Part shown: in pieces, positions 59,675 through 63,884 of the stretch | Position numbering within the stretch: position 1 is the stretch's first letter | How the letters are laid out: every line of letters starts with the position of its first letter | Source of the DNA: Promethearchaeota archaeon | GTDB taxonomy: Archaea > Asgardarchaeota > Lokiarchaeia > Sigyniarchaeales > SOKP01 | Assembly: GCA_030603385.1 (NCBI GenBank) | Contig: JAUVXW010000025.1 | Location: 1 to 63,884 of the forward strand | Direction of reading: 5' to 3' | Length of the DNA: 63,884 bases | Notes under the pieces: generated by a model | The model's input: only the letters and a program-made list of their open reading frames with translations | Databases searched by the model: none | What the model was told of the DNA's origin: nothing | Made by a program: the position numbers and the translations under genes

Positions 59675-60127
59675 ATGTCTTCGAAAACTCAATTTCTCAA
59701 ACATGTAGAATATTTAATAAAGAAATATGAGAATGAGGAAAAATCTGGAATATTTTTTAAACTTGAGAAGGGTAAAGATCCTTTGGAAATCCTTGGAGTT
59801 CTAGATTTTTTAAAATATAAACTTGAAAAATGGGGGAATACTAATATTTTTAGCTATTTAGGTAGCTTATTTGATAAAAATACTATTCTGGTAATAGGGT
59901 CAAGTAAATCTGAGGAAGCTATAAGTATTATAAAACATATTTATTTATCTCAGGTAATCAAAAATGCAGAACAAATCAAGAATTTAATAGGAAAATTAGA
60001 TAATATTTTTGATCTTGAGCAATATTTAAGTAATGAAATATCTAATAAGATAAAAGTAGGATATCCAATTGAGCCAAAATTGGAAATTCAGTTAAAAAAT
60101 CATATAAAAAAACTTTTAGCATCTTAG
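59675..60127 (+). CDS. Hypothetical protein
   Basis: 150-aa ORF. Confidence 0.65.
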   Translation: MSSKTQFLKHVEYLIKKYENEEKSGIFFKLEKGKDPLEILGVLDFLKYKLEKWGNTNIFSYLGSLFDKNTILVIGSSKSEEAISIIKHIYLSQVIKNAEQIKNLIGKLDNIFDLEQYLSNEISNKIKVGYPIEPKLEIQLKNHIKKLLAS

Positions 60128-60177: not shown

Positions 60178-60436
60178 TTAACCAACTTTAATATTCATCT
60201 TCTTTCGTTCTTCGAGTAAAGCATCTACCACTGTAGGATCGGTTAAAGTTGTTACATTTCCAATATCAGTTCCAGCTGCTATAGCTTTTAAAATTCTTCG
60301 CATAATCTTCCCACTTCGAGTTTTTAGTAGTGCGTCAGCAAATTGAATTACATCCGGCTGAAAGACAGGCCCAATCTCTTGTCTTACGTGCATCCTTATC
60401 TCTTTAGATAGTTTAGCTGATTTTTCGAGGCCCGGG
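60178..60436 (-). pseudogene. acs: Orphan 3' end of acetyl-CoA synthetase, copy 1
   Basis: [37 protein letters not shown]; homology starts at CCCGGG; in-frame stop a few codons upstream. Confidence 0.85.
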
Positions 60437-60506
60437 TAAAATTGCTTTTAAGATTCTACTTATAAAAATGTAAAATATTATTAATTGAGCTAACTGTTTA
60501 TTAATC
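60178..60506. repeat. Direct repeat unit 1 (acs 3' end plus conserved non-coding arm)
   Basis: Matches 63085-63415 at an offset of 2907 bp. Confidence 0.9.
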
Positions 60507-60569
60507 GTTCATAGGATTTATTATAAAAGATTTAAGGTTGAAATTCAAAAGATTGATATTTAACAATAT

Positions 60570-63047
60570 TTGAGGAAATTGAAGATGAATAAACAATCTC
60601 AAAAATTAGAGAATATTGATAGACAGATTTTAACTGGTTTTACGTTAATAAGAGCAAGGGAGTTTAACAAAGCATTATCAATAGTTAACGATATCTTAAA
60701 TGAAAAAGCAACCCAAATGAACTTAACCCAAAAATTTGGTGCAAGAGTAGCAAGATTATTAGCACTAATGGGCTTAAAAAAGTATGATCAAGTTATTGGT
60801 GAAATTAAGCTTTCTGAACAAATTATAAACCAAATGGATAATAGTAATAAAGAAAATCCCCTTGTAAAAGATGGAATCGGCAGACTATTTTCTATAAAAG
60901 GCGCTATTCAATCTGGTCAGGGGGATCTTGAAAATGCTATAGTTAATTATCATCGTAGCATAGCGATTTATGAAACTTTGAACAATAAAAAATCTACATT
61001 TTACCAGTTTGATGCAATTGGTTGGATCAAACGAGCTCAAGGCAAATTGGATGAAGCCTTGGACTATTTCCATAAAATGTTAAATCTTGCTAAAGAAATT
61101 CATAGTGAAATGCACATCGCAATGGCAAAATATTCAATAGCATTTACCCATTTTTATAAAGGAGACTTAGATCAAGCAACAGAATATGCCCAAGAGTCTT
61201 TAGCAGTTTATGAAAAGTTGAAACATTTTAGAGGTCTTACCGCTGCGTATTCTGTTTTCGGATCAATTTATCGTGGAAAAGGTGAATTTGAAAAAAGTTT
61301 AGAATATTATCATAATGTATTAACTATTTACGATGAAAATTTAGATATTCAAAAGGGGGTGACACATAGTTATTGCTATGCTCTTAGAAATATTGGATGG
61401 ATATACTATTATAAAAATAAAATAAAAAAATCAATTGAATACTATAGAGAAGCGGTAAAAGTACATAAATCTTTATGTGAAGCAAATAATACTATATTGG
61501 ATTACGATCTTATTTTCTTTCACTTATTATTGATTCTTTCAGCCATAGAAATTGATGATAATCAACAAATTGAGAATTCAATGATGGAACTTTCTAAATT
61601 TGCGCATAAATGGCCTTGGACGGAATTCTTTAGGAAATTTGGGGAAGCTATTATATTGAAAAATAAACAACGAGCGAAATATCGATTTCAAGCCCAACAA
61701 ATTTTTGAAGAAATACTTGAAGAAAAATTTGATTATCAAGTAGAATTCATGATCCAAGTAAATCTGTGTGATTTATTGTTAGAAGAGCTAAAATATTCTG
61801 GATCAGAAGAGATACTGATAGAAATTCAAGATTTACTTAATAGAATCTCTGATGTCGCTATCAAACAACGTTCTATTACCACTTTAGTAGATTTATATTC
61901 TCTTCAAGCCAAATTAGCTTTAATTGAGGGAAATGCTGAACTTTCAAATGAATTATTGACTAAAGCTCTCACAATTGCTGAAAATAAAGGAATGGAGTTG
62001 CTTTCAGAAAAATTAATACTTCAACAAAATCAACTTTTCAATCAATTAGAGGAATGGAAAGCATTATTTATTCAGAATTCAAAATTACAAGAAAGAATTG
62101 AGATTTTAAATCTAAAAGAGTATATAACAGAAGCTATTAGTGAGGTTTTAGAGAAGAAATTCAAGATTGAAAAGAAATACAATATATTCTACAAAGATTT
62201 ACTCATGGAATACCATAAAATCCAAAGAGGGAAATGTAGAGTTGGAATAGCTCAAATAGGGCTCTCCAAAACTGGAGATATTTTAAATGAATTTTTTGAA
62301 TTAAAAGCTTCAGGACTATTAGGGCTTAAAGAAAATAAAATTGAGACAGTTAGATCCACTTTTAAAAACATGGTAGAGAAGGCTAATTCTAATGGAATAA
62401 ATATTCTCATCTTTCCAGAAATGACAATTGATCTAAATTATGATATCTTTTTAGAGGAAATATCAAATCTAGCTAAAATTTATGAAATGTATATTATTCC
62501 CGGATCTTATCATGATCAAACAACAAAGCAAAATTTAAGTATAGTAATAGGTCCAGAGGGAGTTCTTTGGGAACAAGAAAAACATATACCCGCCGTAATA
62601 CATTTTGGGGGGAAAAGATTTGAAGAAATGATTGATACAAGCTCCCTCCCTCGTAAAACAATCGTTTGTAACACTGAATTTGGAAGAATAGCCATTGTGA
62701 TATGTCGAGATTTCTTAGATATGGATCTTAGAGTAGAATTAAAAAATTTTGAACCCCCTGTGGATATCATTATTAATCCCGCCTTTACACCAGTTACAGC
62801 TGATTTTACAGCTGCACACTTCGACGCTCGGAGATCTATTTACAGTTATTGTTTCTTTGCGAATGTTGCTGAATACGGTGAATCTCATATATATACACCA
62901 GAAAAGGATCGTACTGAAAGATTAATACCTACAAAAGAAGAAGGGTTGATATATAAAGATATAGATCTCTTCACATTACGCTCAGAGCGCAAAAAGTGGG
63001 AAAAGGAACAAAAGAAAGAGATACAATTTATACAAAGTACAAGATAG
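60570..63047 (+). CDS. TPR-repeat protein fused to a carbon-nitrogen hydrolase (nitrilase) domain
   Basis: N-terminal TPRs; C-terminal IFPEM (E), EKHIP (K), ICRDF (C) triad. Confidence 0.88.
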   Translation: MRKLKMNKQSQKLENIDRQILTGFTLIRAREFNKALSIVNDILNEKATQMNLTQKFGARVARLLALMGLKKYDQVIGEIKLSEQIINQMDNSNKENPLVKDGIGRLFSIKGAIQSGQGDLENAIVNYHRSIAIYETLNNKKSTFYQFDAIGWIKRAQGKLDEALDYFHKMLNLAKEIHSEMHIAMAKYSIAFTHFYKGDLDQATEYAQESLAVYEKLKHFRGLTAAYSVFGSIYRGKGEFEKSLEYYHNVLTIYDENLDIQKGVTHSYCYALRNIGWIYYYKNKIKKSIEYYREAVKVHKSLCEANNTILDYDLIFFHLLLILSAIEIDDNQQIENSMMELSKFAHKWPWTEFFRKFGEAIILKNKQRAKYRFQAQQIFEEILEEKFDYQVEFMIQVNLCDLLLEELKYSGSEEILIEIQDLLNRISDVAIKQRSITTLVDLYSLQAKLALIEGNAELSNELLTKALTIAENKGMELLSEKLILQQNQLFNQLEEWKALFIQNSKLQERIEILNLKEYITEAISEVLEKKFKIEKKYNIFYKDLLMEYHKIQRGKCRVGIAQIGLSKTGDILNEFFELKASGLLGLKENKIETVRSTFKNMVEKANSNGINILIFPEMTIDLNYDIFLEEISNLAKIYEMYIIPGSYHDQTTKQNLSIVIGPEGVLWEQEKHIPAVIHFGGKRFEEMIDTSSLPRKTIVCNTEFGRIAIVICRDFLDMDLRVELKNFEPPVDIIINPAFTPVTADFTAAHFDARRSIYSYCFFANVAEYGESHIYTPEKDRTERLIPTKEEGLIYKDIDLFTLRSERKKWEKEQKKEIQFIQSTR

Positions 63048-63084
63048 ATTCTAATTATAATTATAAAAATAAAATAAAAAAAAA

Positions 63085-63343
63085 TTAACCTATTTCAACA
63101 TCCATCTTTTTGCGTTCTTCAAGTAAAGTATCTACTACTGATGGATCAGCCAAGGTAGTGACGTTTCCTACGTCCGACAAGGAGGCAATTGCTTTAAGAA
63201 TTCTTCGCATTATCTTTCCACTTCTCGTTTTTGGTAACGCATCAGCAAATTGAATGACATCTGGTTGAAATACTGGGCCTATTTCTTGTCTAACATGCAT
63301 TCTAATTTCTTTGGATAATTTAGCTGATTTTTCGACGCCCGGG
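63085..63343 (-). pseudogene. acs: Orphan 3' end of acetyl-CoA synthetase, copy 2
   Basis: [37 protein letters not shown]; same CCCGGG breakpoint. Confidence 0.85.
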
Positions 63344-63415
63344 TAAAATTGCTTTTAAGATTCTACTGAAAAAAAAATGTAAAATATTATTAATTGAGCT
63401 AACTGTTTATTAATC
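63085..63415. repeat. Direct repeat unit 2 (acs 3' end plus conserved non-coding arm)
   Basis: Shares GCCCGGGTAAAATTGCTTTTAAGATTCTACT and AAAAATGTAAAATATTATTAATTGAGCTAACTGTTTATTAATC with unit 1. Confidence 0.9.
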
Positions 63416-63473
63416 ATTGTATTAGACAATTAAGGTCAAAATTTAGTAATTTTAAACCCACGATTGATAATAA

Positions 63474-63884
63474 ATGTCTTTATTGGATGAAAGCGGACTT
63501 GCTCTATTAGAAAAAGCCCGAGAACAAAAAAAAGCATATAACTGGTTGGAAGCAGTGAGACTTTTTGATCATGCTGTGGATTTTTATATTGATAAAAAAG
63601 ATCCAGAAAAAGTAATGGAGATCTGTACTGAAGTAGTCACTTTTAATCAATATTACTACTATACTCTTACAACAGCTGAACAAAATAAGGAAGTTAGTAG
63701 TTTAGTATTTAAAATCTTTGAAAAAAGTGAATCTTTCTATAAACAGTTAAGGAAAAAACCTGAAGAACTGGTCTGTACAGCAACAAATCTCTTAGCTAAT
63801 TCCCTCCACCAAGGTGATGTAGTTGAAACGGAGAAAAATATTGATAGAGCACTTGAAATTTGTAATACATTAAATGAAATTTAT
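63474..63884 (+). CDS. TPR-like helical protein, 3'-partial
   Basis: MSLLDESGLALLEKAREQKKAYNWLEAVRLFDHA.. open to the window end. Confidence 0.7.
   Translation, partial: MSLLDESGLALLEKAREQKKAYNWLEAVRLFDHAVDFYIDKKDPEKVMEICTEVVTFNQYYYYTLTTAEQNKEVSSLVFKIFEKSESFYKQLRKKPEELVCTATNLLANSLHQGDVVETEKNIDRALEICNTLNEIY

Follow-up and report, generated by a model that had tools for sequence, protein, structure and literature searches.

Displaced acetyl-CoA synthetase 3′ ends joined to TPR-nitrilase genes in a Promethearchaeota archaeon suggest serial displacement at a recombination hotspot

In the genome of a Promethearchaeota archaeon (NCBI GenBank assembly GCA_030603385.1, here G000) the intact gene of acetyl-CoA synthetase, acs, shares its locus with two displaced copies of its own 3′ end, each joined to a different gene for a protein with tetratricopeptide repeats (TPR) and a nitrilase (CN-hydrolase) domain. 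Both displaced ends lie in the last part of the stretch of 63,884 nt which we analyzed; this stretch, called here the window, is the entire contig C24 of G000 (JAUVXW010000025.1), so position 63884 is the contig end. Most probably the array has arisen by serial 3′-end displacement at a recombination hotspot, through general homologous recombination and without dedicated cassette machinery. A first-pass annotation of the window had instead proposed integron-like, non-autonomous cassettes added serially at a site inside acs. The serial part of this proposal agrees with the comparisons described below; the site-specific cassette is not supported by them.

The full order of the locus is HEAT-repeat gene, orf150, fragment A, joint J2, leader, T1, fragment B, joint J2, leader, T2, and intact acs (Table 1). 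The two acs fragments are repeated at a spacing of 2907 bp. Their minus-strand frames (60178-60435 in A and 63085-63342 in B) are open for 85 codons and correspond to the final 84 residues of acetyl-CoA synthetase. Both match the Pfam domain AMP-binding_C (2.5e-8 for A and 3.7e-10 for B), which spans aa 539-617 of the intact protein, and the orphan fragment is shorter than this domain. As the first-pass annotation had described, each fragment ends at a CCCGGG joint with a near-identical arm, behind which a different TPR gene follows. The break had been placed at a Pro-Gly pair; here the Gly does come from acs, whereas the Pro codon belongs to the joint, the intact gene reading ..LMQGVEKSAK.. 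at this place. The coding parts of the repeat are 78% identical. A recount gave exactly the 21 synonymous codon differences and the one amino-acid change reported for the first 39 codons; over all 71 codons there are 32 synonymous and 12 non-synonymous differences, and the proportions of differing sites are 0.76 for synonymous (pS) and 0.07 for non-synonymous (pN) ones.

An intact acs on the minus strand had been predicted to the right of the window, and it is present there after T2. G000 has a single intact copy (659 aa, C4:309970-311949), next to which a convergent TPR-nitrilase frame runs off the end of contig C4. Within G000 no overlap between the ends of C24 and C4 was found by k-mers, and the missing ~1.8 kb of T2 lies on no G000 contig. 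The contigs can be joined because a metagenome contig, Ga0209977_10001907 (L032), spans the gap. It is 98.9% identical in nucleotide sequence to the end of C4 and 96.6% to window positions 61364-63884, and contains T1, fragment B, arm B, the whole of T2 (~1281 aa), and intact acs, in this order. The two T2 pieces of G000 are 99% and 98% identical to T2 of L032 at the amino acid level. We considered an assembly artefact and rejected it, since the joint is present in four independent assemblies. The hexamer CCCGGG is found only 71 times in the 3.89 Mb genome. Short Logan contigs from four runs showed continuations into intact acs at 63330-63336, which come from relatives with a B-like functional tail, and one low-depth joint from 60349 to 63373 (depth 3.4, side 30), which was not trusted.

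If the units were added one after another, then we can ask: How many of them do the relatives have? The sister species G019, a Promethearchaeia metagenome-assembled genome, has one unit, G000 has two, and the other relatives have none. Both G019 and the sequence L033 show the order HEAT gene, orf150, acs fragment, arm, T1, and intact acs. The flanks of G000 and G019 are 97-98% identical in nucleotides, with a synonymous divergence (dS) of 0.04-0.06, and T1 is 98.2% identical in nucleotides to its G019 ortholog. Genomes G002 and G013 keep orf150 and the HEAT gene, have other genes, and lack an acs shard. A GNAT gene alone stands between acs and HEAT in G003, while other genomes have E1 alpha/beta, URO-D/B12-binding, or ABC-type genes in this interval. 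No integrase was seen in the acs-HEAT intervals of the relatives examined.

The origin of the displaced ends was traced in a tree built from the last 255 nt of acs. Fragment A forms a clade with the orphan fragments of G019 and L033 and the intact tail of G002 (support 0.84), fragment B with fragment B of L032 and the intact tail of G019 (support 0.95), and the present acs tail of G000 with the tails of L032 and G024 (support 0.95). Judging from this topology, fragment B would be the tail in use before the arrival of T2, and fragment A the native tail of the orf150-type lineage. Together with the series of zero, one, and two units, the tree supports the earlier view that each unit displaced the previous 3′ end of acs and that the leftmost copy is the oldest. 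The divergence between A and B is dominated by synonymous changes because each tail diverged inside the working acs of a separate lineage. The near-identical arm, taken at first for a cassette arm, is better read as a relic plus a family leader. Common descent from one joint keeps the two arms alike, and so presumably does constraint on the leader as a regulatory element.

The 71-aa open reading frames of the fragments were also considered as a conserved, independently expressed family, and this was ruled out. The final 15 codons are missing from the orphan copies of G019 and L033, and that of G019 also has an in-frame stop together with Gly-to-Cys and Pro-to-His changes. A second full-length acs of G019 was detected at a contig end (L028, G019:C146, 5321-7282). 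Its product is 88.8% identical to the G000 protein, and in its tail it resembles fragment B at 95%. A paralog, strain mixture, or contamination could explain this copy.

The arm between each fragment and its TPR gene has a composite structure. The letters of J2, CCCGGGTAAAA, are probably filler at an illegitimate joint, as suggested by their comparison with intact acs and older shards. They are followed by the 16-nt relic TTGCTTTTAAGATTCT. The corresponding stretch (60442-60457) in G001, G015, G014, G020, and G023 runs leftward into a decayed acs tail broken near codon 618, the older joint J1; in G001 this tail is 73% identical to acs over aa 619-659 (blastn, E ~1e-26). From ~60458 to the start of T1 the arm is homologous to upstream regions of TPR-nitrilase genes across the genus, including loci far from acs, and G000 has such a homolog at its own paralog (C26:129399-129486, upstream of a gene for 1278 aa). 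The arm thus appears to combine an older acs relic with the promoter/leader of the TPR-nitrilase family, the promoter role being suggested by conservation. Counterparts of the leader part of the arm do exist in relatives, and their presence at non-acs loci argues against an att arm specific to cassettes. An Rfam search of the arm gave no match.

Arms A and B are nearly the same over CCCGGG and ~75 nt past it: they are identical over the first 30 nt from CCCGGG, differ by a 2-nt indel and a few bases in an A-rich stretch, and are 98% identical over the next 46 nt. In arm B, sequence of arm A has recombined with a leader of T2 type, and the crossover lies in the conserved motif TGTTTATTAATC. The best T2 ortholog, that of G022, is 94.9% identical, but only within the region that begins inside the leader and closes with the stop codon of T2. 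The palindrome TTGAAATTCAA of the T1 leader occurs also in the upstream region of acs (G000:C4:309945-309955), where 30 nt resemble the T1 leader. It stands downstream of an AT-rich TATA-like stretch in both places, and is found as well in G019, L032, and T1-type leaders of other genomes. This palindrome may be an operator shared by the T1 leader and acs.

Matches spanning J2 were found only in G000 (twice), G019, L032, and L033 among 54 genomes of the genus and in exact scans of genome and metagenome collections. Other acs shards are broken elsewhere: J2 lies at aa 576, J1 near aa 618, and the break in G012 near aa 570, ~20 nt further 5′; short pieces are present in G014 and G017. G012 has two orphan shards (L016, G012:C50, 2373-2425 and 6969-7270), one of them with 90 codons at 95% amino acid identity. 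They lie far from intact acs, among unknown genes and a gene for a Schlafen/AlbA_2 protein. Shards of acs can therefore end up away from acs, since those of G012 are located on C50 and its intact gene on C78. The single-contig 2.3-Mb genome of G023 has a short T1-type gene and then only a relic of ~28 acs codons (L024, G023:C1, 8682-8783), so that a deletion seems to have removed acs from this place.

The intact gene is itself a mosaic. Compared between G000 and G019, acs begins with 150 nt of 97% identity, falls to 75-83% in its body, and reaches 91-93% at 1500-1800; this last similarity crosses the position of J2 without a step. The acs body of G019 is 95-98% like that of G018, although the G019 flanks are 98% like those of G000. 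Between species of the genus, 150-nt blocks alternate between 75% and 98% identity (G000:C4:309970-311949 against L011, L029, and others). Although C4 and L032 share 98.9% identity over the whole locus, the final ~110 nt of their acs genes are different. Fragment A and the G019 orphan also have mosaic blocks, with dS 0.57 against 0.04-0.06 in the flanks. The orphans, too, carry imported patches, and later gene-conversion patches would have come from working alleles.

From these comparisons we infer the following order of events. In an old event a TPR-nitrilase gene would have come to lie beside acs, and a short shard of acs, broken at J1, would have remained and become fused to the promoter of this gene. 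In the ancestor of G000 and G019 a single illegitimate joint, J2, at the Gly of ..MQGVEK.., would have created the unit, which consists of acs tail, joint, leader, and T1 and has acs 3′ homology at both ends. Such a unit could enter a naive or an occupied acs by plain double crossover, with the orphan fragment and the acs tail/body as its arms, and would need no enzyme of its own. Pairing of the incoming fragment with the resident orphan would swap the cargo, and pairing with the resident functional tail would displace this tail, so that units stack. A T2-type gene probably entered a J2 unit by recombination in the conserved leader, and the result was then stacked onto the unit with T1. A homologous anchor with an illegitimate joint is consistent with the 11 nt of J2, which intact acs does not read there, and with the mosaic structure of acs, the event being known from its end products.

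Several observations weigh against this scenario. Neither the intermediate, a single-unit J2-T2 allele, nor the donor of the present acs tail was found, and the path is reconstructed from end products. Fragment B switches from fragment A type to G019 type within ~20 nt of J2, which a fixed crossover site would also give. The 11 nt CCCGGGTAAAA may be filler or diverged shard sequence. No candidate recombinase was found, but the genome-wide search covered tyrosine recombinases only, so an unknown or trans-acting recombinase could still be involved.

The alternative closest to the first-pass annotation is an integron-like or integrative cassette, that is, non-autonomous units with att arms, inserted at a fixed site of acs by a site-specific recombinase encoded elsewhere. 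We regard it as improbable. An array of single-gene units beside a fixed point, varying from zero to two among close relatives, does resemble an integron, and both units have an identical joint and arm start; the switch of fragment B close to the joint and four further matches to PF00589 (Phage_integrase) on other G000 contigs also fit. However, PF00589 has no match on C24 or C4, where an IntI gene would be looked for, and neither unit has a recombinase gene, each being filled by one TPR gene; for the complete 2.9-kb unit this had been stated correctly from the start. G019, G012, G022, and G017 have one XerA-like tyrosine recombinase match each, on other contigs. That of G019 is of housekeeping type, and it is the only tyrosine recombinase match in G019, which has a unit. 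The arm, far from being private to the units, is the leader of all family paralogs, and its copy B is a homologous recombinant. No attI/attC hairpin marks the array: folds of single-stranded DNA of the arm gave z-scores of +0.3 to +1.5 against shuffles on both strands. Integron cassettes lack promoters and depend on one that they have in common, whereas each TPR gene has the family leader, also present at solitary paralogs and read by us as a promoter from its conservation. Finally, other events broke acs at other codons, and in the 54 genus genomes and the public scans J2 was found only in one small clade.

Islands that integrate into the 3′ ends of tRNA or protein genes offer a related comparison. 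Their tandem accretion leaves older copies further away, and the acs array can be likened to this; as in such islands, direct repeats of the target 3′ end flank the insert. Unlike islands, the acs units have no integrase inside or near them, and independent insertions do not share a crossover core, the two J2 copies being related by descent and the breakpoints of other events being different. It is also conceivable, as a long shot, that TPR-nitrilase genes, possibly with a defence function, have a dedicated landing pad in the acs 3′ end, where they are gained, exchanged, and stacked as cassettes that use homology arms or a recombinase, and that the leader doubles as a recombination signal. If true, archaea would have here a counterpart of cassette arrays, run by an enzyme unknown so far or by none at all.

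In-situ tandem duplication of the acs tail with a TPR gene, followed by divergence and decay, is very improbable. Direct repeats with the same joint are in line with duplication, and unequal crossing-over between fragment A and the acs tail would copy J2. The tree contradicts it, as the three tails group with acs of different genomes and not with one another. T1 and T2 have no detectable similarity in their N-termini, the flanks are 98% identical to those of the one-unit G019, and the divergence of A and B is mainly synonymous, whereas the G019 orphan shows real decay. Least probable of all is that the orphan tails are retained for a use of their own, whether they are expressed as small proteins or serve as a silent reservoir from which gene conversion re-patterns the C-terminus of acs: the frames open in both G000 fragments, the patchy conversion tracts, and the differing last ~110 nt of acs in near-identical strains would suit it, but the G019 and L033 orphans are truncated, the former with a stop, fragment A has lost the conserved Pro of LPKTRSGK, the fragments do not reach the length of AMP-binding_C, and the tails, 85-90% identical in protein, have little to vary.

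Serial displacement by homologous recombination probably has its closest parallels in C-terminal displacement at rhs loci and in module displacement in type VI secretion systems (T6SS). At rhs and contact-dependent growth inhibition (CDI) loci, strings of displaced 3′ tips follow the intact gene, each with a piece of the conserved core, and new tips come with a linked gene; homology-dependent insertion has been proposed for them (Jackson et al. 2009, PMC2935791). The acs locus likewise has an intact gene, then orphan tips with core homology and a linked gene, and its tips come from different lineages. Unlike rhs/CDI tips, which are polymorphic in function, the acs C-termini are functionally equivalent, so that displacement would be a by-product and not a diversification. 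Its cargo is a convergent TPR-nitrilase gene, probably with its own promoter, in place of an immunity gene, and the host is an archaeon. T6SS effector-immunity modules are displaced sequentially by homology-facilitated illegitimate recombination, in which the conserved gene part anchors the incoming DNA, the other end joins illegitimately, and repeats of the process leave ordered leftovers (Kirchberger et al. 2017, PMC5361080). An ordered array of leftovers recurs at acs, where an anchoring gene part and an illegitimate joint are presumed as well. In contrast to T6SS, the acs array stores gene tails plus whole cargo genes, and after one illegitimate joint ordinary homologous recombination would suffice. 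The acs locus differs from these known displacements in that its tips derive from a housekeeping enzyme, in that a separate gene, convergent and equipped with a leader, travels as the passenger, and in that the host belongs to the Asgard archaea.

The cargo genes belong to a TPR-nitrilase family which was detected in 46/54 genomes of the genus. A genome has at most 12 matches, and as many as five genes can stand in a tandem run. Example loci are window 60570-63047, G000:C26:129518-133351, and G016:C1:154815-173619, and the proteins have sizes of ~825 or ~1280 aa. Their N-termini are very divergent and their C-termini ~70% identical; the leader is more conserved than the genes. PADLOC gave only generic TPR matches and matches to the nitrilase domain of defence-associated reverse transcriptases (DRT), and called no defence system. 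A PDB sequence search yielded only a weak match to the Nit family (E 0.003), in which the motifs FPE and C-x-D are aligned. A defence function of the family is possible. A XerA-like tyrosine recombinase gene (G000:C26:136761-137267) lies 3.4 kb downstream of a solitary TPR-nitrilase paralog, probably by coincidence.

In most of the genomes of the genus that were examined, the interval next to acs is bounded on its far side by the HEAT gene. The genes within ~10 kb beyond acs and ~4 kb of the other flank are ordinary and include those for TFIIB, an Arf/Rag-like GTPase, PAP2, acetyl-CoA hydrolase, an M20 peptidase, and Roadblock. A gene for a GNAT acetyltransferase of 280 aa adjoins acs in many genomes of the genus (L019 8566-9408, L013 5803-6645, and others), and in G000 it is replaced by orf150. 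This acs-adjacent GNAT could be a Pat-like regulator of the active-site lysine of acetyl-CoA synthetase.

Table 1. Features of the acs-adjacent array in the window, from left to right
Feature	Position	Strand	Remarks
HEAT-repeat protein, 556 aa	57841..59511	-	Pfam HEAT_2 2.3e-95; conserved left anchor of the variable interval
orf150, no family	59675..60127	+	flank gene common to G019, L033, G002, G013
Fragment A, displaced acs tail (aa 576-659 + stop), P-to-L in LPKTRSGK	60178..60432	-	native G002-type lineage
Joint J2, CCCGGGTAAAA	60431..60441	.	letters absent at this place from intact acs and from the older shard of relatives
16-nt relic TTGCTTTTAAGATTCT of older acs shard (RILKAIA codons, joint J1)	60442..60457	.	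from comparison with relatives
T1 promoter/leader (promoter putative)	60458..60569	+	family motif 60466-60509; palindrome TTGAAATTCAA 60538-60548
T1, TPR + CN-hydrolase, 825 aa, cargo of unit A	60570..63047	+	Pfam TPR_12 3e-25, CN_hydrolase 8.9e-7; PADLOC RTasNitrilase 2.1e-11
Fragment B, displaced acs tail, formerly functional end	63085..63339	-	94.5% nt identity to the G019 intact tail, including ASLSDVG
Second copy of J2 + 16-nt relic	63338..63364	.	identical to copy A
Chimeric leader B	63365..63473	+	A-type to ~63415, then T2-type (G022-like); crossover in conserved TGTTTATTAATC motif
T2 N-terminus (first 137 residues), TPR + CN-hydrolase, ~1281 aa	63474..63884	+	cut by contig end; continues at C4:312146-313783

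If the array has this origin, the locus keeps a dated record of the order in which genes were gained in uncultured Asgard archaea, and each displaced tail tells which acs allele was in use until the next gene came in. It indicates that recombination between species is frequent enough to turn a central metabolic gene into a patchwork, and that homology to one host gene at its two ends can allow a gene to spread and stack without the enzyme of a mobile element. It is also a warning that a conserved arm next to a diverged coding repeat need not be an att site. Finally, the locus draws attention to a large, fast-diversifying TPR-nitrilase family, whose nitrilase domain resembles a domain found in defence-associated reverse transcriptases.

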